64,000 nucleotides of DNA from Candidatus Omnitrophota bacterium (GCA_026387335.1 JAPLLX010000007.1:243-64242); one strand, 5' to 3'. Counted from the stretch's first letter, positions 1,599-61,571 are shown. Numbers and translations are program-made. The notes: a model not told the origin generated them from the sequence alone.

Positions 1599-2780
1599 AT
1601 GGGTAATATGAAGAAAATAATATTTACAGTTACCATTCTTTTCTGTCTGCCTATATTTATAAATCTAAGTAAGGCATATGGCGATGACACACATACATTG
1701 ATGGTTTTTCATTCGCCAAGCTGTCACAGGTGTATTGAGGTTAAAAAGGATATTCTGCCTGCAATTGAAAAAGAATTTAAGGGTAGGATCCAGATAAAAT
1801 ATTACGATATTACGGATATTAATAATTACGCGTTAGTCTTCGGGCTTAAGGATAAATACAATAAGGATTTTGAGCTTACCCTGCCGGTATTTTTTATCAA
1901 TGGCCGCTTAATTAATGGCCAGGGCGATGTAAAAAGCAATCTTAAATTAGCTATTGACGTTTCTTTGGGAGAGGCCCGTAGGGAGGAAGGAGCGTTGAGA
2001 GTGGATTTAGCCAGTCGCTTCAGTAGTTTTAAACCTTTGGCTATTGCCGGCGCCGGCCTTACCGACGGGATTAATCCCTGCGCGTTTACGGTTATAGTGT
2101 TCTTTATTTCATATCTGGCGCTTCAGGGATACAAAAAGTTAGAACTTATTATCATAGGGCTTTCTTTTATATTCGCTGTTTTTTGCACGTATTTATTGAT
2201 CGGCCTGGGGATTTTTAATTTCCTTTACCAACTTGAGGGTTTTTGGATCCTGGCTAAAGTTTTTAATATTTCAATCGGGATATTCAGTTTAATATTAGGG
2301 GGACTGGCCCTTTACGATTTAATAAAGTTTAGCAAGACTAAAAGCTCGGATGGTCTGCTCCTGCAATTGCCGCAGGCCCTAAAGAATCAGATACATTCCA
2401 TAATCGGGATGCATTACCGTAAGCCTAAAGAGGCCGCTACAAAAAAGAACGCCTTGTTTAGGTTCGCCAGGTTAGTTTTAAGCGCGCTTATTACGGGATT
2501 TTTAGTTTCTATTTTAGAGGCAGTTTGCACCGGCCAGCTTTATCTGCCGACGATCACCTTTATTCTAAAGACTGACACATTTAAGCTAAAAGCGTTTACC
2601 TACCTGTTAATTTATAATATTATGTTTATTATACCGCTAGTCATAATATTTCTTTTGGCGCTCTGCGGAGTTACTTCGCAGCAGTTCGCTCAATTTATCA
2701 GGAAGCATATGGTGGGCATAAAATTGCTCATGGCGGTTGTATTTATCAGTTTAGGCGTATTATTAGTCTGGAGGGGATAG
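1599..2780 (+). CDS. Thioredoxin-fold domain (CxxC) fused to CcdA/DsbD-type thiol-disulfide transporter membrane domain
   Basis: Signal/TM segment, then SPSCHRC redox motif, then a multi-TM region with GINPCAFTV and a second Cys (EAVCTGQLYLP), typical of the DsbD/CcdA core. Confidence 0.7.
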   Translation: MGNMKKIIFTVTILFCLPIFINLSKAYGDDTHTLMVFHSPSCHRCIEVKKDILPAIEKEFKGRIQIKYYDITDINNYALVFGLKDKYNKDFELTLPVFFINGRLINGQGDVKSNLKLAIDVSLGEARREEGALRVDLASRFSSFKPLAIAGAGLTDGINPCAFTVIVFFISYLALQGYKKLELIIIGLSFIFAVFCTYLLIGLGIFNFLYQLEGFWILAKVFNISIGIFSLILGGLALYDLIKFSKTKSSDGLLLQLPQALKNQIHSIIGMHYRKPKEAATKKNALFRFARLVLSALITGFLVSILEAVCTGQLYLPTITFILKTDTFKLKAFTYLLIYNIMFIIPLVIIFLLALCGVTSQQFAQFIRKHMVGIKLLMAVVFISLGVLLVWRG

Positions 2781-3145
2781 TGCTTAAATCCTTCTTTATA
2801 TTTATTATTTTAGCGGCTGTTTTGTCTGTATGTCAGGCAGAAGATCCTTACGCCTGGGATTTTGGTCAGGTTAAGCCCGGGGAGGTTGTTACCCACGATT
2901 TTATATTCAAGAATGAGACAGGTAAGGAGCTGAAGATAAAAGATACAAATACATCCTGCGGCTGCACTGTTTCAGCGGTTGAAAAGAAAACTCTCCTGCC
3001 GGGGGAATCTACTAAGATCAGCGTTAAATTTAATTCCCAAGGCTATTCAGGCGCTGTGCAGCAGTTTATCTATGTCAACACGGATAATCTTGACAACCCA
3101 GTCATTAGGTTTATAATTAAAGCTAACGTAGCTAATAATAAATAA
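2780..3145 (+). CDS. DUF1573 domain secreted protein
   Basis: Signal peptide followed by a FxFxN..G...L.I....TSCGCT pattern (HDFIFKNETGKELKIKDTNTSCGCTV). GTG start overlaps the upstream stop. Confidence 0.7.
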   Translation: MLKSFFIFIILAAVLSVCQAEDPYAWDFGQVKPGEVVTHDFIFKNETGKELKIKDTNTSCGCTVSAVEKKTLLPGESTKISVKFNSQGYSGAVQQFIYVNTDNLDNPVIRFIIKANVANNK

Positions 3146-3159
3146 AACTTTAACATAAA

Positions 3160-3276
3160 AATACCAATTACCAAATCCCAATGACGAATGAATGATTTAA
3201 ATCCCAATTCCCAATTGGGACATTGGATAATTGTGATTTCATTTGACATTGGAACTTGGACATTGGGAATTAATAT
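3160..3276 (+). promoter_or_regulatory. Candidate operator/promoter region upstream of htpX: array of CCAAT and ATTGG half-sites around palindrome CCCAATTGGG
   Basis: CCAAT at 3164, 3179, 3204 and 3211. Palindrome CCCAATTGGG at 3210-3219. GACATTGG repeated at 3219, 3245 and 3259. Possible TTGGAA-N16-TAATAT promoter at 3249-3276. Confidence 0.4.
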
Positions 3277-3298
3277 GTTTATGAGGAGGTAAATTACA

Positions 3299-4261
3299 AT
3301 GTGGTCCTTACAATTAAGGATGTGGTTATTAGTGACAATTCTTTTCGGTTTTATCTACGCGCTTATTGTTGTCGTCGGAAGAACATTCCTGCACGTAGGG
3401 GATTTCAGTTTCTACCTGATTATTTCTCTTGTCCTTATGTTTGTGCAGTATATGATCGGGCCAAAGATCGTGGAATGGACGATGCGCGTTAAGTATATTA
3501 AAAGGCAGGACAACCCCAGATTATTCCAGATGGTAGAGAATTTAGCCAACCGGGCAAATATCCCCACGCCTAAAATCGGAATAGCCCAGATAGAAATCCC
3601 TAATGCTTTTGCTTTTGGCAGGAGTATAGGCGATGGAAGGGTTTGCGTTACGCAGGGTATTTTAGGTTTATTAAGCGATGAAGAATTAAGGGCGGTCTTG
3701 GGTCATGAGCTAAGCCATTTAAAGAACAGGGATGTTTTAACCATAACCCTGCTTTCGGTGATTCCTATGATTATGTACAGGATTGCCTGGCAATTTCTTT
3801 TTTACGGCCGCCGGCGCGACGAAAGGGGAGGAAATACCGTATTAATCGGTTTGGCAGCTTTCGTTTTTTATTTTATTACCAACCTTTTAGTGCTTTATGC
3901 TTCGCGTATCCGCGAATATTTCGCGGATAGGGGCTCTGTGGCTTTAGGTAATCGGCCCTCGGCGCTGGCCTCTAGCCTTTATAAGCTTGTTTACGGGTCT
4001 GCCCGTATGAGTCCGGAGGCGCTCAAGGAATCAGAAGGCCTGAAGGCATTTTTTGTAAATGATCCTTCGCAGGCAAGGAATGAAATCAGGGAATTGGCCC
4101 AACTAGACCTTGATAAAAGCGGGACTATTGACCCTGCGGAGTTAGATATATTAAGAAATAAGGATATACGCTTAAGTTTAGGGGATAAATTAATGGAATT
4201 GCTAAGTACGCATCCTAATATGCTTAAGCGCATCAAGAGGCTTTCGGAGCACAAGGCGTAA
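3299..4261 (+). CDS. htpX: M48 zinc metalloprotease HtpX homolog
   Basis: HELSHLKNRD zinc motif (HExxH), four TM segments, C-terminal STHP..RI motif. Strong RBS GAGGAGG upstream. Confidence 0.9.
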   Translation: MWSLQLRMWLLVTILFGFIYALIVVVGRTFLHVGDFSFYLIISLVLMFVQYMIGPKIVEWTMRVKYIKRQDNPRLFQMVENLANRANIPTPKIGIAQIEIPNAFAFGRSIGDGRVCVTQGILGLLSDEELRAVLGHELSHLKNRDVLTITLLSVIPMIMYRIAWQFLFYGRRRDERGGNTVLIGLAAFVFYFITNLLVLYASRIREYFADRGSVALGNRPSALASSLYKLVYGSARMSPEALKESEGLKAFFVNDPSQARNEIRELAQLDLDKSGTIDPAELDILRNKDIRLSLGDKLMELLSTHPNMLKRIKRLSEHKA

Positions 4262-4273
4262 CTTTCTAACGTT

Positions 4274-4318
4274 AGGGACGGTTCTATTCGTATAGCCTAA
4301 AGCAATAGAACCGTCCCT
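4274..4318 (+). repeat. Perfect 15-bp-stem palindromic element (AGGGACGGTTCTATT / AATAGAACCGTCCCT), probable terminator of htpX
   Basis: Arms at 4274-4288 and 4304-4318 are exact reverse complements. The same GGGACGGTTCT arm recurs at 26160-26234. Confidence 0.7.
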
Positions 4319-4361
4319 TTCTATTGACATAACCCCAATTCCACTATATAATTATAAAACT

Positions 4362-5813
4362 ATGGAGTTGAACGAACTTATCCAACAAAGAAAGGCTAAA
4401 GCCGAAGCGCTTAAAGCCAAAGGGGTTGTTTTATACCCTAGCCAAAGCTCTAAATATGTGAGCATAGGCCAGGTTTTGGTTGATTTTAAGGAAGGCCAGA
4501 AATTAGCCTTTTGCGGCCGCATTACTGCCAAACGTTCGCACGGAAAAGCCGCGTTTTTAGACTTAAGGGATTCAACCGGAAAGATTCAGCTTTATATCAA
4601 AAAGGATATCGTAGGAGAAGATAACTTTTTTATCTTCGAGAATATCGATATTGCTGATTTTGTCGAGGTAACCGGCGAACTTTTTAAGACGCATACCGGT
4701 GAGCCTACGCTTAAAGTAGAAGCAATGAAGGTTCTGGCCAAAGCTTTAAGGCCGCTTCCTGAAAAATGGCATGGCCTGCGGGATGTCGATATCCGCTACC
4801 GGCAGCGTTATCTGGATTTGATTGCGAATGAAGATGTAGCTAAAGTATTCCAGCAGCGTTCAAAAATAATTAAAGCGATCCGGGATTTTCTCGACGCCAA
4901 AGGCTTTCTAGAGGTAGAGACTCCGATGATGCATTCTATTCCGGGGGGTGCCGCCGGCAGGCCGTTTAAGACCTATCACAATGAATATAGTATGGATTTA
5001 TTCTTGAGGATTGCTCCGGAGCTCTATTTAAAACGGCTTTTAGTTGGAGGCTTGGACCGGGTTTACGAGATCAACCGCTCTTTCCGCAATGAAGGCGTAT
5101 CTACCCGGCATAACCCTGAGTTTACGATGTTGGAAGTTTACCAGGCTTATTCTGATTACGCCGGGATGATGCATTTAGCTGAAAGTTTAATAGTAACTTT
5201 AGCGCAAGGCATTTGCGGTAAAACGATTATCAATTATCAGGGTAAGGAGCTGGATTTTACTCCTCCCTGGAAGCGGATTTCTTTTAAAGAATTGGTCAAG
5301 AATGAATTTGGCATTGTTCCTGAGGATGACGCAGCCCAAATGCTCAAAAAGCTTAAAGCCAAAGGTTTTGCCAAAGAGGTAAATAAGCTTTCGCGCACGC
5401 AGATCGCCAAGATCATCGAGGAGGTTCTCGAAGGGCAGATGAGTTTAAATCCTACTTTCGTTACGGATTATTTCAGCAGCATGTGCCCGTTAGCTAAGAG
5501 TAAGTTGGACGAACCCCTAGTCTCGGAGAGGTTTGAATTATATATAGCCGGAATGGAAGTCGGCAATGCCTACTCCGAGTTAAATGATCCCCTTGAGCAG
5601 AGGGCTCGCTTTGAAGATGAGATTAAAGAGCTTGTAACTGCTGAACAGAAGAATATTGACGATGATTATTGCCTGGCGCTTGAGCACGGTATGCCTCCGG
5701 CAGGCGGGTTGGGTATCGGCATAGACCGGCTGGTAATGCTTTTAACCGATCAACCTTCAATCAGGGATGTAATTTTGTTCCCTCTTTTACGTTCGGAGCA
5801 AGAAGATAAATAG
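4362..5813 (+). CDS. lysS: Lysine--tRNA ligase (class II)
   Basis: OB-fold N-terminus and class II motifs (FRNEG, GGLGIGIDRLVMLL). The length of 483 aa is typical. Confidence 0.95.
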   Translation: MELNELIQQRKAKAEALKAKGVVLYPSQSSKYVSIGQVLVDFKEGQKLAFCGRITAKRSHGKAAFLDLRDSTGKIQLYIKKDIVGEDNFFIFENIDIADFVEVTGELFKTHTGEPTLKVEAMKVLAKALRPLPEKWHGLRDVDIRYRQRYLDLIANEDVAKVFQQRSKIIKAIRDFLDAKGFLEVETPMMHSIPGGAAGRPFKTYHNEYSMDLFLRIAPELYLKRLLVGGLDRVYEINRSFRNEGVSTRHNPEFTMLEVYQAYSDYAGMMHLAESLIVTLAQGICGKTIINYQGKELDFTPPWKRISFKELVKNEFGIVPEDDAAQMLKKLKAKGFAKEVNKLSRTQIAKIIEEVLEGQMSLNPTFVTDYFSSMCPLAKSKLDEPLVSERFELYIAGMEVGNAYSELNDPLEQRARFEDEIKELVTAEQKNIDDDYCLALEHGMPPAGGLGIGIDRLVMLLTDQPSIRDVILFPLLRSEQEDK

Positions 5814-55304: not shown

Positions 55305-55379
55305 GGTGGCTATAGCTCAATTGGTTAGAGCGTTAGACTGTGGCTCTAAAGGTTGCGGGTTCGATCCCCGTTAGCCACC
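55305..55379 (+). tRNA. tRNA-His (anticodon GTG) with encoded G-1
   Basis: G-GTGGCTA / GCTC-AATTGGTTA-GAGC / TTAGA-CTGTGGC-TCTAA / GCGGG-TTCGATC-CCCGT / TAGCCAC-C. Confidence 0.95.
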
Positions 55380-55434: not shown

Positions 55435-55467
55435 AGAGCGTTAGACTGTGGCTCTAAAGGTTGCGGG
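55435..55467 (+). pseudogene. Partial duplicate of tRNA-His (D-stem 3' strand through T-stem 5' strand), non-functional
   Basis: 33 nt, AGAGCGTTAGACTGTGGCTCTAAAGGTTGCGGG, identical to 55327-55359 at an offset of 108 nt. The flanks diverge: no acceptor stem and a degenerate T-arm. Confidence 0.8.
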
Positions 55468-55496
55468 ATCGTTCTCCTCGCATAACGGGATAGTTT

Positions 55497-55550: not shown

Positions 55551-57362
55551 ATGCTTAGATTGGGAAAACAGGTAGACCTCAAGATAATCATTACAATTGC
55601 CTCCATTTTAATTATAACTTTCTTTTCTTTTTATCCCTGCCTTAAAAATAATTTTACGAACTGGGACGACAATTCATATGTAACAAACAATACAAGCGTG
55701 CGTAATTTATCAACAGGCAATATAAGACGTATTTTTTCCTCTTTTTCTGTGGGCAATTATCAGCCCGCGGTTATCTTGTCCTATTTATTTGAATACCGCT
55801 TCTTTAAGTTGAAACCATTCGGGTATCATTTAACTAACCTTATACTGCACTTACTTAATTGTCTATTTGTGTTTTGGCTGTTTTATCTGCTTACCCGCAA
55901 GATCTCGGTTTCTTGGCTAACAGCCGTCCTCTTTGGCCTACACCCTTTACATGTGGAATCAGTCGCCTGGATCAGTGAGAGAAAAGACGTGCTTTACGCG
56001 TGTTTCTTCTTAGCTGCGCTTATTTGCTATTGTTATTACCTGCGGAAGGAAAAAATAGGAAAATATTATTATTCTTCTTTAATTTTATTTATTTTCTCTC
56101 TTCTATCAAAAGCAATGGCCATCACTTTGCCCGCCGTGCTGTTGCTTATAGATTATTTTTTGCATAGAAAGCGCAGTAAAACCGCGCTCCTGGATAAAAT
56201 TCCCTTCTTTATTCTCTCTTTTATATTCGGGATAATCGCTGCTATCGGCCAATACTCAAGCGGAGCCGTAAGGCAAGAGAGTTTACTTAATTTTGTGAAT
56301 AAAATCGCGGTTTCTAGCTACGGCATAATTTTTTATCTTAATAAAATATTAGTCCCGATCAAGCTTTCTTGTTTTTATCCTTATGCGGGAACAAAAGAAA
56401 TTTCCTTATTTCCCTATACTTTTATCACAGTTGTTATCCTGTTGGCCGCTGTAATTATTTCAAGTAAGCGCACAAGGAAAATTATTTTTGGCAGTTTTTT
56501 ATTTTTAATTACTATTTTACCCGTTTTACAATTTATACCAATAGGCAATATCATCGTTGCCGATCGTTATATTTATATCTCATCGTTAGGAATATTTTAT
56601 CTTATTTCCGAGGGGTTTATCTGGTTATGCGCTTTGAAAACAAAACACCTTTATTTTTTACAAAGTTTGATGATGTTGATAATTTTAACCGGCGCGCTAG
56701 GCATTTTGGCCACATTAACCTGGAAAAGATGCCAGGTCTGGAATAATAGTATAGTTTTGTGGAGTGATGTTTTGAAGAATTATCCTAATGAAGCGACTGC
56801 TTACAAAAACCGGGGAGTGGCCTACCGGGATCAAGGTAACTTTACGCAGGCCATCTCTGATTATAATCGGGCGATAGAACTTAATCCTAATGATGCCGAT
56901 CCTTACAACAACCGCGGAGTGGTCTACCGGGACCAGGGTAACTTTACGCAGGCAATCTCTGATTATAATAGGGCGATAGAACTTAAACCTAACTATGCCG
57001 ATGCTTACTACAACCGTGCCCTTGCTTATCAAGCCCAGGGTAGCCCCGCCCAGGCTATTTCTAATTTCAGTAAGGCCATTAAAATTGATTCCCATCTTGT
57101 TAAAGCTTACAACAACCGCGCGACAGCCTATGTTCAAGAAAAAAATTATGAACTGGCTTTATCCGATCTTAATAAGGCTATTGAAATTACCCCTAATGAT
57201 GGAGAGGTATTTTACAACCGGGCGGTAGTGCGTTTTTTAATGAAAGAATATGATAAGGCCTGGATGGATATTCATCGAGCAGAAGAATTGGGAGAAAAAG
57301 TAGACCCTAAGCTTATTGAATTGCTCCGGAAAGCCTCTAAAAACAAGGAATTGCCTCTCTAA
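55551..57362 (+). CDS. TMTC-like membrane protein: polytopic N-terminal domain (DUF1736-type motif) plus C-terminal TPR repeats
   Basis: ~11 TM helices with HPLHVESVAWISERKDVLY (DUF1736-like). The C-terminus has about six 34-aa TPR units (A..Y.NRG.AY...G....AI.DY..AIEL.P). Confidence 0.75.
   Translation: MLRLGKQVDLKIIITIASILIITFFSFYPCLKNNFTNWDDNSYVTNNTSVRNLSTGNIRRIFSSFSVGNYQPAVILSYLFEYRFFKLKPFGYHLTNLILHLLNCLFVFWLFYLLTRKISVSWLTAVLFGLHPLHVESVAWISERKDVLYACFFLAALICYCYYLRKEKIGKYYYSSLILFIFSLLSKAMAITLPAVLLLIDYFLHRKRSKTALLDKIPFFILSFIFGIIAAIGQYSSGAVRQESLLNFVNKIAVSSYGIIFYLNKILVPIKLSCFYPYAGTKEISLFPYTFITVVILLAAVIISSKRTRKIIFGSFLFLITILPVLQFIPIGNIIVADRYIYISSLGIFYLISEGFIWLCALKTKHLYFLQSLMMLIILTGALGILATLTWKRCQVWNNSIVLWSDVLKNYPNEATAYKNRGVAYRDQGNFTQAISDYNRAIELNPNDADPYNNRGVVYRDQGNFTQAISDYNRAIELKPNYADAYYNRALAYQAQGSPAQAISNFSKAIKIDSHLVKAYNNRATAYVQEKNYELALSDLNKAIEITPNDGEVFYNRAVVRFLMKEYDKAWMDIHRAEELGEKVDPKLIELLRKASKNKELPL
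56808..57011 (+). repeat. Two near-identical 102-bp tandem units encoding adjacent TPR repeats
   Basis: Units 56808-56909 and 56910-57011 align with roughly 90% identity by eye (NRGVAYRDQGNFTQAISDYNRAIELNPNDADPYN / NRGVVYRDQGNFTQAISDYNRAIELKPNYADAYY). Confidence 0.85.
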
Positions 57363-57443: not shown

Positions 57444-57689
57444 ATGCCTTGGTCACTTTACATAGTTAAATGCCAAGATACATCCCTTTACACCGGCATC
57501 ACAACCGATATCCCCCGTCGGCTCAAAGAGCATAATGCCAAGAAGGGCGCGTTTTATACCAAGAATAAGATTCCGGTTGAGCTTGTGTACCAAGAGCCAA
57601 TGCGGAATCGCTCCGAAGCCCTTAAACGCGAATCCGCCATTAAGAAGCTGACAAGGAAACAAAAGCTGCAATTGTTACCCACTAAATAA
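57444..57689 (+). CDS. Small stand-alone GIY-YIG nuclease-domain protein (UPF0213-like)
   Basis: SLYIVKC.D.SLYTGITTD..RRL.EHN motif (GIY-YIG) and a conserved downstream Glu (EALKRE). Confidence 0.85.
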   Translation: MPWSLYIVKCQDTSLYTGITTDIPRRLKEHNAKKGAFYTKNKIPVELVYQEPMRNRSEALKRESAIKKLTRKQKLQLLPTK

Positions 57690-57738: not shown

Positions 57739-58026
57739 ATGACTAATGCAATTTCGGTTGAAGTTATAGCTACAAAGATCTTAGAGATAAGAGGTAAAAA
57801 GGTTATGCTGGATAGCGATCTGGCTAAGCTTTATGGCGTAGAAACCAAAGTATTAATTCAGGCTGTAAGAAGAAATAAGGCGCGCTTCCCGCTCGACTTC
57901 ATGTATATACTCACAAGACAAGAGGTTATGAACTTGAGGTCACAAATTGTGACCTCAAGTTGGAGCGGGAGAAGAATTGAGTTATCTTCTTCGTTGTCAA
58001 GCCTACCCAAAAGTGCTATAATTTAA
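57739..58026 (+). pseudogene. ORF6N (KilA-N-related) domain gene, apparently truncated after the conserved LRSQ.VTSSW.GRR segment
   Basis: KVMLDSDLAKLYGVETKVLIQAVRRNKARFPLDFMY.LT..E..NLRSQIVTSSWSGRR matches the ORF6N pattern. The usual continuation (YLPYAFTE...) is absent in all frames. Confidence 0.6.
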
Positions 58027-58090
58027 CAACTTAGGAGAAAATATGTCTTTAGCTGAGTTTGCGATCACCTTATATTTATAACTATATTTA

Positions 58091-58117
58091 ACCCAGCCAC
58101 GTAGACTGGGTTTTTTT
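58091..58117 (+). terminator. Intrinsic terminator separating the ORF6N remnant from the MazG/DUF2075/HNH module
   Basis: Stem ACCCAG/CTGGGT (58091-58096 / 58106-58111) followed by a T7 tract. Confidence 0.7.
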
Positions 58118-58142
58118 GTTTCACTTTAGAAAAGGAGTTTTG

Positions 58143-58490
58143 ATGAACGAAATGAAAGAAATTACTGAAAAAATCAAGAAATTTAGAGATGAGCGTGACT
58201 GGATGCAATTTCATGATCCTAAGAATATGGCTGTTTCAATAATACTCGAAGCTTCTGAGCTGCTTGAGCATTTTCAATGGAAAACTACCGAAGAAGTAGA
58301 AAGATATTCAAGGAAAAATCTCGCTGAGATTAAGGATGAAATTGCAGACATAGCCTTATATCTTTTTGAATTAGCCGATAATCTCGGTATCAATTTAATT
58401 GATGCGATGGATCAAAAACTTAAAAAAAATGAAATGAAATATCCGGTGGAAAAAGCTAAAGGAAAGCATACAAAATACAATAAGCTATGA
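58143..58490 (+). CDS. MazG-like all-alpha nucleoside-triphosphate pyrophosphohydrolase (DCTPP1/YpjD-like)
   Basis: F...RDW.QFH.PKN....I..EA.EL.E.FQW......E...EIADI..YL..LA pattern with EExxE/D metal motifs. AAGGAG RBS before ATG 58143. Its stop overlaps the next start (ATGA at 58487-58490). Confidence 0.8.
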   Translation: MNEMKEITEKIKKFRDERDWMQFHDPKNMAVSIILEASELLEHFQWKTTEEVERYSRKNLAEIKDEIADIALYLFELADNLGINLIDAMDQKLKKNEMKYPVEKAKGKHTKYNKL

Positions 58491-60865
58491 GACTCTATGA
58501 GGGGTCAATCAAGGAATTTTCGGAAGACGTAATACATAATCGTATCGCAGATATATTAAAAGATAACTTTCTCGCCTACTATAGAAGACCACCCTCAGAA
58601 CCAGAATATCGTTCCTGGCAGCAGTCACTAAATTTCCTAAATAACGCATTCACGTATTCAGATTTATTGAATAATAAAATAATAGTGGAGTATGAATTAC
58701 CATATTCAACTCGGCGCATCGATGTGTTGGTGTTTGGGAAGAATAATTCAAATAAGGATAGTGTTGTTTTAATGGAGTTAAAGCAATGGTCTAATGAACA
58801 TGTCTATGATTGTGAAAATGAAGGTAATGTAATAATAGATTTTCTTGGTAAGAGAGAGGTAGCTCATCCTTGTTTACAAGTTGAAGGATATCATTTTGAT
58901 TTATTAGATTTTCTGTTGATTTTTAATAGTGATGACGCAGTGCAGCTAAATTCTTGCACATATTGTCACAATTATACTAAGCAAAAAGAAAACATACTCT
59001 CGCTCCCCAAATTCCATAAATTCACCAAGGCTTTTCCTCTGTTTCTCAAAGAAGATGTCAGAGAATTGGGCCTTTATTTGCAGGAGAGATTAAAGAATAG
59101 TGACGGGCTAGAAGTCTTTAGTCGTTTTTTAAATAGCCCTGTTCGACCTTCGAAAAGATTACTAGATCACACTGGCGATATGATTCATAAGCAGCAAATA
59201 TTTACGCTTATTGATGATCAAATCGCTGCTTATAATGCGATTATTAGCAAAGCTAAGCAGTTAACTAAGACAAGTACAAAGTCTATTATTGTTGTAAAGG
59301 GTGGTCCTGGAACAGGCAAGTCAGTAATTGCATTAGAAGTTATGGGCGAGCTGATGCGTCAGGGTAAGGTTGTATATCATGCTACCGGTTCATCCGCATT
59401 TACAAATACATTGAGAAAAATTGTTGGACGTAGAGCATCAAATCTCTTCAAATTCTTTTTTAACTTTACGCAGCACAAGGAGAACGAAATCGATGTTCTG
59501 ATATGCGATGAGGCCCATAGGATTAGGTCGGATAGCAATGATTATGGGGTGCCTTCTAAATTTAAATCAAAAAACCCTCAAATAGATGATCTTATAAGGC
59601 CCGCAAAGTTATCGATATTTTTTATAGATGAATTCCAGATTGTCCGTCCAAAGGAGATTGGTAGTGCTGAATTAATAAAAAGTTCAGCCGCTAAATTTGG
59701 CGTAAATGATAAAGACATTGTAGAATTCGAACTTAGGACGCAGTTCCGTTGTTCCGGGTCAGATGCATATTTACAGTGGTTAGACAAGCTACTGGAGATT
59801 AGAGAGTCTGATATAGATATTTTTGATGCAAAAATGGAGTTTAGAATTTTTGAAACTCCAGTAGATTTAAAAAGAGCAATTGATGAGAAAAATAGACACA
59901 AGGAGAATTTAGCTAGAATTGTTGCTGGTTTCTGTTGGAAATGGAGTGAACCGAATCCAGACGGTTCATTAGTAAAAGATGTTCAAATAGGTGACTTTCA
60001 AATGCCCTGGGAGAAGAAGGATGAATTTTGGAAGTGGGCTACTGATAAGAGTGGTATGGAGCAGGTTGGGACAGTCTATACAGCTCAAGGTTTTGAATTT
60101 GACTATATAGGTGTAATCTTTGGAGACGACCTCGTTTGGCGCAAAGATAAAGGTTGGATTAGTATTCCTGAGAATTCTTTTGATAAACAGGTTTTAAGAG
60201 GGAATCAAAAGCTAACTGATCATCTTAAACATGTTTATAGAGTGTTGATGTCGCGCGCTCATAAGGGAGTTTATTTGTATTTCATGGACAAAGAAACAGA
60301 AATGTTTTTTAGGACTAAGATTGAAAGCAGGGATGGCGCTTTGATGTTTTCTGATATTGTTAAAGAGGATGAAAAGCAGTCTAAAGAGCCAGTGCCGACG
60401 ATCCCGGAAAATCTGCAGTTTAGAGATTATCTCCCTATTTTATCACTTGAAGCGGTTGCAACGTCATTCGGTAAAGAAACACAGGTTGAACAAGAACCGA
60501 TTGGTTGGATCAAGGCCGATATCCCTAGAACTTTGAATAAAGACATGTTTGTTGCGAAAGTGGTAGGTAAGTCAATGGAACCGACTATTCCTGATGGAAG
60601 CTATTGCGTATTTCGCTTTGACAAAGGAGGGACCAGGAATGGATTAGCTGTCCTTGTGGAGTGTCATTTAATTTCTGACCCTGAAACGACGAGGCAGTTT
60701 ACAATAAAGCGGTATAAAAGCGAGAAAGAATATTTTGACGATGGGACATGGAGACATAAGAAAATAATTCTTTCTCCTGATAATAATGATTTTAAAGATA
60801 TCGTTTTGGAAGATGTGCCCGCTATCGAATTTCGAGTTGTAGCGGAGTTTATGTGTGTTTTATAA
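58487..60865 (+). CDS. DUF2075-type protein (N-terminal PD-(D/E)xK-like nuclease plus P-loop SF1-like helicase/ATPase) with C-terminal S24 LexA/UmuD-type peptidase domain
   Basis: N-terminus has SE.E.RSWQQSL and RRIDVLVFG...VLMELKQW (D...ELK). Walker A GGPGTGKS (aa 272-279), Walker B/DEAH ICDEAHR, helicase C-terminal motif TVYTAQGFEFDY. C-terminal aa ~645-792 have VVGKSMEPTIPDGSY (Ser codon 60572-60574) and FTIKRY (general-base Lys). Confidence 0.8.
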   Translation: MRLYEGSIKEFSEDVIHNRIADILKDNFLAYYRRPPSEPEYRSWQQSLNFLNNAFTYSDLLNNKIIVEYELPYSTRRIDVLVFGKNNSNKDSVVLMELKQWSNEHVYDCENEGNVIIDFLGKREVAHPCLQVEGYHFDLLDFLLIFNSDDAVQLNSCTYCHNYTKQKENILSLPKFHKFTKAFPLFLKEDVRELGLYLQERLKNSDGLEVFSRFLNSPVRPSKRLLDHTGDMIHKQQIFTLIDDQIAAYNAIISKAKQLTKTSTKSIIVVKGGPGTGKSVIALEVMGELMRQGKVVYHATGSSAFTNTLRKIVGRRASNLFKFFFNFTQHKENEIDVLICDEAHRIRSDSNDYGVPSKFKSKNPQIDDLIRPAKLSIFFIDEFQIVRPKEIGSAELIKSSAAKFGVNDKDIVEFELRTQFRCSGSDAYLQWLDKLLEIRESDIDIFDAKMEFRIFETPVDLKRAIDEKNRHKENLARIVAGFCWKWSEPNPDGSLVKDVQIGDFQMPWEKKDEFWKWATDKSGMEQVGTVYTAQGFEFDYIGVIFGDDLVWRKDKGWISIPENSFDKQVLRGNQKLTDHLKHVYRVLMSRAHKGVYLYFMDKETEMFFRTKIESRDGALMFSDIVKEDEKQSKEPVPTIPENLQFRDYLPILSLEAVATSFGKETQVEQEPIGWIKADIPRTLNKDMFVAKVVGKSMEPTIPDGSYCVFRFDKGGTRNGLAVLVECHLISDPETTRQFTIKRYKSEKEYFDDGTWRHKKIILSPDNNDFKDIVLEDVPAIEFRVVAEFMCVL

Positions 60866-60875
60866 TTTCTAAATA

Positions 60876-61571
60876 ATGTTTAAAGCCGGTGATGTAATTT
60901 CATACATTGAAATGTGCCAAGAAGAAGGTATAAGTCTTCAAAGAGGAATGAACTTTCGACTTAAAGGAAGACACAGTGTAATATTGATGAGTCTCAGACG
61001 CAATGCTCCATATGCTGATAAGGTTGAAGATAATGGCAAGACATTAATATACGAAGGTCATGATATCCCTCGGTTTAATAGAGCTCAAGATTCAAAGCTG
61101 GTTTCTCAACAAATGCAGAATCCCGGAGGTAGTTTAACTCAGAATGGGTTTTTTTATAAAGCAGCGCATGATTACAAAAATAAGAAGTCTGATGCAGAGC
61201 TAGTCAAGGTATATGAAAAAATTCATTCAGGAATATGGGCTTATAACGGTTTATTTAAACTAGTTGATTCGTGGCAAGAAGAATCGAATAAAAGAAAAGT
61301 ATTTAAATTCAGACTTGAAATAGATAAAATAAATTCTAAGGGCAAACAGCCAGAAAATTTTGATTTGGATCGTAACAGATTAATACCTGCATCTGTAAAG
61401 CTAGCGGTTTGGAAGAGGGATAAGGGGAAGTGTACTAAATGCGGCAGCCCTGATAATTTACATTTCGACCACATAATTCCTTATTCAAAAGGCGGGTCTT
61501 CTTTAGTTGCAGAAAACATTCAGTTGTTATGCGCAAGACATAATATTGAAAAGCGAGATAGGATTGAATAA
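60876..61571 (+). CDS. SRA (YDG)-like domain fused to HNH nuclease: type IV (modification-dependent) restriction endonuclease candidate
   Basis: N-terminus GMNFRLKGRHSVILMSLRRNAPYADKVEDNGKTLIYEGHD and VKVYEKI..GIWAYNGLFKLVDSWQEE..KRKVFKFRLE parallel the SRA blocks (GIHG..GAYSLVL.GGY.DD.D.G....YTGSGG; VRV.R.....YDGIYKVV.YW.E.G..G..V.RY.L.R). C-terminus CTKCG..DNLHFDHIIPYSKGG......NIQLLCARHN is an HNH motif. Confidence 0.75.
   Translation: MFKAGDVISYIEMCQEEGISLQRGMNFRLKGRHSVILMSLRRNAPYADKVEDNGKTLIYEGHDIPRFNRAQDSKLVSQQMQNPGGSLTQNGFFYKAAHDYKNKKSDAELVKVYEKIHSGIWAYNGLFKLVDSWQEESNKRKVFKFRLEIDKINSKGKQPENFDLDRNRLIPASVKLAVWKRDKGKCTKCGSPDNLHFDHIIPYSKGGSSLVAENIQLLCARHNIEKRDRIE

Follow-up and report, generated by a model that had tools for sequence, protein, structure and literature searches.

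What does a small nucleotide pyrophosphatase do when its gene overlaps that of a nuclease-helicase? The question is raised by a 64,000-nt stretch of DNA from a Candidatus Omnitrophota bacterium (GCA_026387335.1 JAPLLX010000007.1:243-64242), here called the window, in which a MazG-like gene at 58143-58490 runs into a DUF2075 gene at 58487-60865, both on the plus strand, as are all further features of the module and its leader. Our analysis revealed that this pair recurs widely and looks like a previously unnamed two-gene form of the Nhi/AbiO-like anti-phage systems. We regard the family of the small protein, its intact active site, its coupling to DUF2075 and the two-way association of the genes as established, and we infer its substrate, its defence role and the logic joining both proteins.

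The MazG-like gene runs from an ATG at 58143 to a TGA at 58488-58490 and encodes 115 amino acids (aa). Its product matched the MazG-like family PF12643 over profile positions 2-85 of 85 (3.9e-20, 72.3 bits against a cutoff of 27); PF03819, the classical MazG family, fell below its gathering threshold (16.9 vs 22 bits). The nearest solved structures by sequence were Archaeoglobus AF1178 (4qgp, 5e-25) and mouse/human DCTPP1 (1.4e-18). An AlphaFold2 model of moderate confidence (pLDDT 70) was all-helical, and Foldseek returned 4qgp and DCTPP1 chains as its best matches (TM 0.65-0.72, probability 1.0). An earlier reading of the DNA, made from the sequence alone (the sequence-only reading), had described a small all-alpha nucleoside triphosphate (NTP) pyrophosphatase; Pfam, the sequence matches in the PDB and Foldseek agree with it and place the protein in the DCTPP1/RS21-C6 type.

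To predict functional residues, we took their roles in DCTPP1 (metal ligands, tryptophan sandwich and histidine filters) from PMC13291643 and mapped them onto the window protein with a HMMER alignment. The predicted metal ligands are E36, E39, E66 and D69 (DCTPP1 Glu63, Glu66, Glu95 and Asp98), the predicted tryptophan sandwich is W20 and W46 (Trp47 and Trp73), the predicted cytosine N3 filter is H24 (His51) and the predicted pocket lining is F14, F23, Y73 and Y100 (Phe41, Phe50, Tyr102 and Tyr129). The position of the cytosine O2 filter, His38 in DCTPP1, is occupied by I11. We then asked how far these residues are kept in the 93 MazG proteins that adjoin a DUF2075 gene, the sample used for all counts of conservation, spacing and co-divergence. 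E36, E39, E66, D69, W20, H24 and Y100 were invariant in 93/93, and W46 was present in 90/93; F14, F23 and Y73 were conserved as well. Compared with close relatives, the gene showed a nonsynonymous divergence (dN) of 0.04-0.18 and a synonymous divergence (dS) of at least 0.7, saturated in most comparisons and rising to infinity, and their ratio, omega, was 0.02-0.09 wherever dS could be estimated. Because omega is low and the catalytic residues are invariant, the protein is, as far as sequence comparison can tell, an enzyme with an intact active site under strong purifying selection, neither decaying nor purely structural.

The analogy with DCTPP1 drawn in the sequence-only reading has real backing in the sequence. 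The window protein, at 35-44% identity across some 100 residues, shares with DCTPP1/RS21-C6 and AF1178 the fold and size of the catalytic core, the E-x2-E...E-x2-D metal site, the Trp/Trp sandwich, equivalents of His51, Phe41, Phe50 and Tyr129, and a KN..KYP C-terminal motif. It breaks down at the His38 position, which is always aliphatic. The protein further differs from DCTPP1 in having neither of the eukaryotic N- and C-terminal extensions and in its setting, a nuclease-helicase operon, whereas DCTPP1 is a stand-alone housekeeping gene.

The downstream gene encodes a protein of 792 aa with an N-terminal PD-(D/E)xK-like part, a DUF2075/SLFN-g3 superfamily 1B (SF1B) helicase core and a C-terminal LexA-like S24 domain. 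PF09848 (formerly DUF2075, now SLFN-g3 helicase) matched at 1.1e-83, and the Walker A (GGPGTGKS, aa 272-279, 59300-59323) and Walker B (DE, aa 341-342, 59507-59512) motifs are invariant in the alignment. The putative nuclease is recognized at motif level, with no Pfam match, by RRIDVLVFG...VVLMELKQW (58712-58789), in which D79, E97 and K99 are invariant (alignment A2). The S24 peptidase domain, LexA/UmuD-like, spans aa 679-783 (60521-60835; PF00717, 1.3e-6), and both members of its Ser696/Lys741 dyad are nearly invariant in the DUF2075 alignment; such a domain was carried by 45/93 MazG-linked DUF2075 proteins. Its presumed cleavage loop reads LEAVATSFG in the window's clade instead of the L.AAAG.F of most relatives, which resembles the LexA Ala-Gly site, so self-cleavage may be altered. 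The AlphaFold2 model of this protein was poor (pLDDT 64, weak beyond residue 100) and was used only to confirm the helicase class, for which Foldseek returned the SF1B helicases Dda, RecD2, Upf1, Dna2 and SLFN11. PADLOC gave partial matches to PDC-S41 (3.3e-17), AbiO (2.4e-13) and Nhi (1.1e-12), the latter two over aa 155-470 only.

By these predicted domains, the window protein shares the architecture of Nhi, Nhi-like and AbiO, its nuclease domain being assigned by motif. Nhi of Staphylococcus epidermidis, Nhi-like (Millman et al. 2022) and lactococcal AbiO all have the layout of a nuclease joined to a DUF2075 SF1B helicase. They are reported, however, as one-gene systems, whereas the window family has a near-constant, translationally coupled MazG partner (62/71 loci). 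About half of the paired DUF2075 proteins, including that of the window, differ from Nhi and AbiO by the added LexA-like S24 domain, and the matches to the hidden Markov models are partial.

The sequence-only reading had pointed to a ribosome-binding site and a stop/start overlap, and had concluded that the two proteins are made in stoichiometric amounts. Both elements are where it placed them: a Shine-Dalgarno sequence AAGGAG at 58132-58137, 5 nt upstream of the MazG ATG, and a 4-nt ATGA overlap at 58487-58490 (GCT-ATGA-GAC at 58484-58493). The same overlap was found in 30/93 MazG-DUF2075 pairs, most of the remaining gaps being 3-12 nt. A Shine-Dalgarno-like motif preceded MazG in 37/72 related loci; between -18 and -4 relative to where DUF2075 starts, it was seen in 0/30 overlapping pairs. 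Since DUF2075 has no such site of its own in these pairs, its translation probably depends on ribosomes finishing MazG. Translational coupling, as predicted from gene overlap, is thus a trait of the family, and this part of the claim stands; stoichiometry is not shown by the overlap data.

To see how general the pairing is, we surveyed it from both sides. One genome per GTDB species was scanned for MazG, which yielded 71 loci whose neighbours were identified by tblastn and calling of open reading frames (ORFs), and a metagenome scan with the DUF2075 alignment yielded 80 loci, 71 of them with room upstream. From the MazG side, a DUF2075 homologue lay immediately downstream in about 37/71 species-representative genomes, mostly at gaps of -4 to +4 nt, and the loci included Phocaeicola dorei and archaeal metagenome-assembled genomes (MAGs). 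From the DUF2075 side, MazG was directly upstream in 50/71 loci and within about 1.1 kb in 62/71; ten loci had it about 0.7 kb upstream across one RadC/JAB gene, and in two it lay downstream, on the opposite strand. Among loci with the S24-bearing DUF2075 form of about 792 aa, MazG was present in 22/23. The pair was seen on plasmids and chromosomes; it occurs in Omnitrophota, Planctomycetota, Elusimicrobiota, several Patescibacteria, Bacillota, Bacteroidota, Pseudomonadota and Archaea. Replicons of cultured strains from a plasmid collection carry it too: in Priestia aryabhattai the order is DUF3578/MrcB_N, nucleotide pyrophosphohydrolase, DUF2075, beside a type I restriction-modification (RM) system; a Halalkalicoccus jeotgali B3 replicon carries a pyrophosphohydrolase followed by DUF2075, and a Halomonas sp. 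PA16-9 replicon has the reverse, DUF2075-S24 and then MazG. The sequence-only reading had proposed a co-occurrence survey as a check, and the pairing does recur, in about 93 loci, in many phyla and in either gene order.

The MazG position can apparently be filled by another enzyme. On Bacillus thuringiensis plasmids, a very distant DUF2075 (24% identity) is preceded by PRA-PH (PF01503), an all-alpha NTP pyrophosphatase, and an HNH gene. Bacillus accounts for 69/111 plasmid records matching the window DUF2075, and the one locus inspected (L159, plasmid NZ_ON470186.1, 1823-5414) holds an operon-like trio of PRA-PH, HNH and distant DUF2075 helicase. From its position, PRA-PH looks like a second NTP pyrophosphatase family recruited in place of MazG. 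Divergence of MazG and of DUF2075 was weakly correlated (Mantel r 0.22, 93 pairs) and the trees were largely incongruent; discordant pairs of loci had MazG proteins 96% identical with DUF2075 proteins at 45%, or conversely MazG at 45% and DUF2075 at 83%. Because PRA-PH apparently takes the place of MazG in Bacillus and the trees largely disagree, the enzymatic activity, not the particular protein, seems to matter to the module. Together with the invariant active site and the variable gene order, the weak co-divergence and the PRA-PH substitution argue against a specific antitoxin-like interface between the proteins and for a link through enzyme chemistry.

Three further ideas were tried and rejected. 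Fusions of MazG to DUF2075 were found neither among 120 DUF2075 homologues with precomputed domains nor among the 150 best MazG representatives, in which tandem duplication of MazG (187-323 aa) was all that was seen. The idea that MazG anchors recombination at the nucleotide level, so that downstream cassettes can be swapped, did not fit a MazG nucleotide identity of only 72-87% with synonymous sites saturated (dS 1.3 to infinity), conservation being at the protein level. As to a phage origin, 2.9 million viral contigs gave only three weak matches, the best of which adjoins a DUF2075-like gene.

What, then, might the enzyme contribute? We favour, at slightly less than an even chance, a pool-sanitising role: as the nuclease-helicase turns on phage DNA, MazG would hydrolyse dCTP-type nucleotides, probably base-modified. 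Both proteins would be made from a single promoter through coupled translation. In this anti-phage module the helicase-nuclease, with its PD-(D/E)xK, SF1B ATPase and S24 parts, would be the arm directed at DNA. MazG would be the small-molecule arm, converting to the monophosphate dCTP-type nucleotides that most probably carry a C5 or N4 substituent. It would deprive phages with modified DNA of precursors, and it would keep modified nucleotides, whether made by the phage or released by DNA degradation, out of host DNA. The nucleases of the module, including an adjacent SRA-HNH enzyme, would thereby keep their discrimination between self and non-self. This role matches both what is documented for DCTPP1, which keeps methylated dCTP from being misincorporated (PMC13291643, PMC7162842), and the earlier observation of DUF2075 beside modification-dependent nucleases (Lutz et al. 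2019, PMC6765204).

A modified-cytosine theme runs through the loci: SRA-HNH and MrcB_N-HNH neighbours, DUF3883/NOV_C loci, a MazG clade coupled to an RsmH-type methyltransferase, and the note by Lutz et al. In the window, the SRA-HNH gene (60876-61571) begins 10 nt after DUF2075 and would encode a modified-cytosine-dependent, type IV-like endonuclease; it matched HNH at 4.6e-9 and SAD_SRA at 6.7e-7, just below the gathering score. It is an optional accessory. Neighbours of the pair were counted over 81, 82 or 93 loci, depending on the feature, and SRA-HNH was next to the pair in 13/81 and MrcB_N-HNH in 4/81 (17/81 combined). The link between MazG and the SRA-HNH gene, put forward as attractive in the sequence-only reading, is a minority feature. 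DUF3883/NOV_C and HNH genes were found upstream of DUF2075 at loci without MazG. The McaZI group of modification-dependent (type IV) enzymes (Lutz et al. 2019) is similar in that a DUF2075 gene adjoins a nuclease reading modified cytosine; it differs in that a pyrophosphatase goes unmentioned in PMC6765204, and such a reader accompanies only about 21% of MazG-DUF2075 loci.

The defence context consists of the PADLOC matches to Nhi, AbiO and PDC-S41, a PDC-S41 paralogue, defence neighbours and a slightly lower GC content. GC is 0.33-0.39 over the window module against 0.40-0.46 in the flanks, and neighbours of the pair include type I RM systems, type IV HNH enzymes, SoFic and other defence families. 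A second DUF2075 paralogue of 658 aa follows the pair in 12/81 loci, directly so in L001 (3258-5234) and nine others, and gave a full-length match to PDC-S41 (2e-287), the PADLOC single-gene DUF2075 candidate. PDC-S41 thus resembles our family through a full-length match in the second paralogue and a partial one in the window protein; it is, however, defined without MazG, and the window has no second paralogue.

Several points weigh against the pool-sanitising role. As a recognisable modified-base reader stands beside only about 21% of pairs, the modified-dCTP idea may hold for a subset. The equivalent of His38, one of the two cytosine filters of DCTPP1, is Ile, Val or Leu in all 93 paired proteins, and specificity may consequently differ from that of DCTPP1. 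Nhi, Nhi-like and AbiO are reported as single genes, so MazG may be dispensable for defence, and MazG itself had no PADLOC match at E <= 0.01, dCTP deaminase and HD-dGTPase effectors included. The MazG subfamily also occurs beside an RsmH-like methyltransferase, OmpA and hemerythrin, which fits a generic house-cleaning enzyme. Finally, the sampled loci are mostly MAG contigs obtained through sequence patterns and form a non-random sample.

The same pair of proteins could instead starve the phage. Here DUF2075 would sense phage replication intermediates and release or activate MazG, so that dCTP or other dNTPs are destroyed and phage DNA synthesis stalls. The enzyme class can hydrolyse canonical dCTP, as DCTPP1 does (PMC7162842), and MazG and the helicase are tightly co-translated. 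We nevertheless consider infection-triggered depletion improbable. MazG consists of the 115-aa catalytic fold only and has no regulatory domain, and the low Mantel correlation argues against a specific inhibitory or activating interface with DUF2075. No fusions were seen among the 150 best MazG representatives. The same subfamily is coupled to a non-defence methyltransferase, and the DUF2075 partner already has an intact nuclease motif as a plausible effector. A module that worked in this way would be akin to the dCTP deaminase, dGTPase and PUA-Cal-HAD defences. With nucleotide-depleting defences (dCTP deaminase, dGTPase, PUA-Calcineurin-CE-HAD and its rare variants that contain MazG) the window module has in common a presumed dNTP-acting enzyme within a putative defence locus; unlike them, it has no PUA, HAD, deaminase or HD domain, and its MazG is sensor-less and paired with a nuclease-helicase.

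Alternatively, MazG could be a generic house-cleaning enzyme that sanitises the pool cell-wide, with DUF2075 cassettes merely tending to land beside it. About 40% of the MazG loci in the genome set have no DUF2075, and in related Omnitrophota MazG seems to occupy one chromosomal location while the gene that follows it differs (L018, L025). The 391-aa gene found upstream in the window also occurs in L018, and the 119-aa membrane protein encoded downstream in the window also occurs in L025, which suggests that the site is shared and the downstream gene was swapped. The gene downstream of MazG in both loci is that of an RsmH/MraW-type (N4-cytosine) methyltransferase, to which a nested Omnitrophota MazG clade is coupled, often through an ATGA overlap (L013, L018-L020, L022, L024-L026 and L051; e.g. 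L018:10001-11418). In a neighbour-joining tree, however, DUF2075-linked MazG proteins spanned the whole subfamily and the RsmH-linked ones formed one nested clade. Adjacency to DUF2075 across phyla, plasmids and Archaea, in both orders and with 4-nt overlaps, together with the 22/23 for the S24 subfamily and the recruitment of a different NTP pyrophosphatase family in Bacillus, likewise speaks against a purely positional linkage, and we give this generic role little credence.

The RsmH-type protein is about 357 aa long with a basic 55-aa N-terminal extension; it is absent from the window, and both kinds of pair occur in one genome (L024 and L038). We rejected RsmH as a sign of the housekeeping division and cell wall (dcw) cluster, since in L013, the one pair whose downstream genes were inspected, it is followed by an unassigned 100-aa ORF, a 237-aa ORF and a histidine kinase, with no recognisable ftsL or ftsI. 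Further partners were seen: a conserved protein of 365-370 aa after MazG (L028:10345-11457, L036:10343-11440, L037:4936-6033), for which the L028 member, the one scanned, had no Pfam match and precedes a DUF2075 gene of the PDC-S41 type; a type ISP RM enzyme downstream (L056:10424-13540); a PIF1 helicase upstream (L055:8654-9916); and a RecQ helicase overlapping the MazG start (L045:7722-9644). These gene arrangements suggest that MazG is an autonomous enzyme, joined time and again to partners that act on DNA or modify cytosine.

A small upstream gene overlapping a large one also recalls toxin-antitoxin operons, and MazG could, by binding or through its product, restrain a toxic nuclease-helicase until infection. 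In keeping with this, the genes are translationally coupled, AbiO is toxic at high copy number (PMC13064643), and a small XRE helix-turn-helix regulator gene is often found just upstream of the pair (12/82). We see only a slim chance for such a safety catch. The catalytic residues are invariant in 93/93, which one would not expect of a protein that only binds; MazG co-diverges weakly with the toxin it would restrain, and the two disagree in either direction, whereas a type II toxin-antitoxin pair is specific and co-evolving; the order is reversed, or interrupted by RadC/JAB or HNH, in many loci; and Bacillus uses a non-orthologous NTP pyrophosphatase. That the module is under the control of (p)ppGpp or a nucleotide second messenger which MazG breaks down, as the sequence-only reading had also suggested and in line with the (p)ppGpp hydrolysis credited to E. 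coli-type MazG, is very hard to credit: it gained no positive evidence, the PF03819 score is sub-threshold, the DCTPP1-like pocket is suited to a pyrimidine dNTP, mazE and mazF are absent among the ORFs neighbouring MazG in the window, and cyclase, TIR and CARF families are absent among the commonest neighbour families of the pair.

Returning to the window, we looked for signals that might control the MazG operon. A longer ORF beginning at a TTG at 58116, proposed by the ORF finder, was rejected because homologues from 66 loci begin at the ATG equivalent, M-[SN]-E. Within the 3' end of an upstream ORF6N gene lies a sigma-70-like promoter candidate (57994-58022; TTGTCA-17-TATAAT, TG-extended, 11/12 match). 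It is a possible promoter for the MazG operon, on weak evidence, as the scan yielded no excess of such sites over shuffled sequence. Between it and the MazG ribosome-binding site, a short GC hairpin followed by a T7 run (CCCAGCC..GACTGGGTTTTTTT) was read off the sequence at 58092-58118; it was not among the sites listed by a terminator scan. It could serve the upstream unit as its terminator or act as an attenuator within the leader, and similar hairpin-plus-T runs lie 20-40 nt 5' of MazG in L003, L005, L006 and L016. A 12-codon ORF, MSLAEFAITLYL, with a TAGGAGA ribosome-binding site occupies 58044-58082, between the promoter-like site and the hairpin, and L003 has an analogous mini-ORF and hairpin ahead of MazG. 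A structured leader RNA or riboswitch was rejected, with no Rfam match and a whole-leader fold equal to that of shuffles (z = 0).

Other accessories and neighbours vary. A RadC/JAB gene lies within or beside the pair in 21/93 loci, and in a three-gene variant a RadC-like JAB/MPN gene (about 230 aa, PF04002) stands between MazG and DUF2075 (L112, L115 at 2213-5127, L127, L133, L137, L139, L141, L142, L144 and L146). Upstream of the window pair are an 81-aa GIY-YIG protein (57444-57689), a small GIY-YIG gene being 5' of MazG in 7/82 loci, and a short ORF6N/KilA-N-like protein of 95 aa (57739-58026) that matches only the N-terminal part of the PADLOC PDC-S05 models (177-306 positions). Farther upstream, three tandem 102-nt repeats (56782-57087; 88% and 61% identity) correspond to TPR units of a gene for a 603-aa TPR protein. 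When island attachment (att) sites were sought around the module, the sole find was a 43-nt copy of the tRNA-His 3' region (55327-55369 and 55435-55477, 93% identical). It begins a repeat that does not enclose the module and is placed 108 nt downstream of the tRNA. This copy may be an att-like scar of integration or excision.

In full-text searches, no paper was found that connects helicases of the DUF2075, Nhi or Schlafen type to genes like MazG or DCTPP1, and the closest precedent for MazG in defence is a MazG-like phosphoesterase predicted to be the NTP-targeting effector of rare PUA-HAD systems. In its strongest form, our proposal would make MazG and the S24-bearing DUF2075 a distinct, widespread two-component immune system of bacteria and archaea, in which the pyrophosphatase is required, destruction of modified dCTP draws the line between self and non-self for nucleases directed at modified or replicating phage DNA, and the LexA-like domain is a switch triggered by DNA damage and RecA. 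This version is doubtful; if true, such a system would combine homologues of DCTPP1 and of an SLFN11-type helicase, both of them human proteins.

Cultured carriers make experiments feasible, among them Priestia aryabhattai NM1_A2, Halalkalicoccus jeotgali B3, Halomonas sp. PA16-9 and the plasmids of B. thuringiensis kurstaki. For bacterial DCTPP1 homologues, the pairing supplies a specific role that can be put to the test. Both partners have human relatives, DCTPP1 and the helicase domain of SLFN11, that figure in discussions of nucleoside-analogue and DNA-damaging drugs, and a functional link in prokaryotes could prompt a search for one in eukaryotes. It would suggest how modification-dependent nucleases avoid self-damage, modified dNTPs being kept out of host DNA, and a near-obligate pyrophosphatase partner would add a metabolic component to the Nhi/AbiO-like class, so far treated as one-gene systems.

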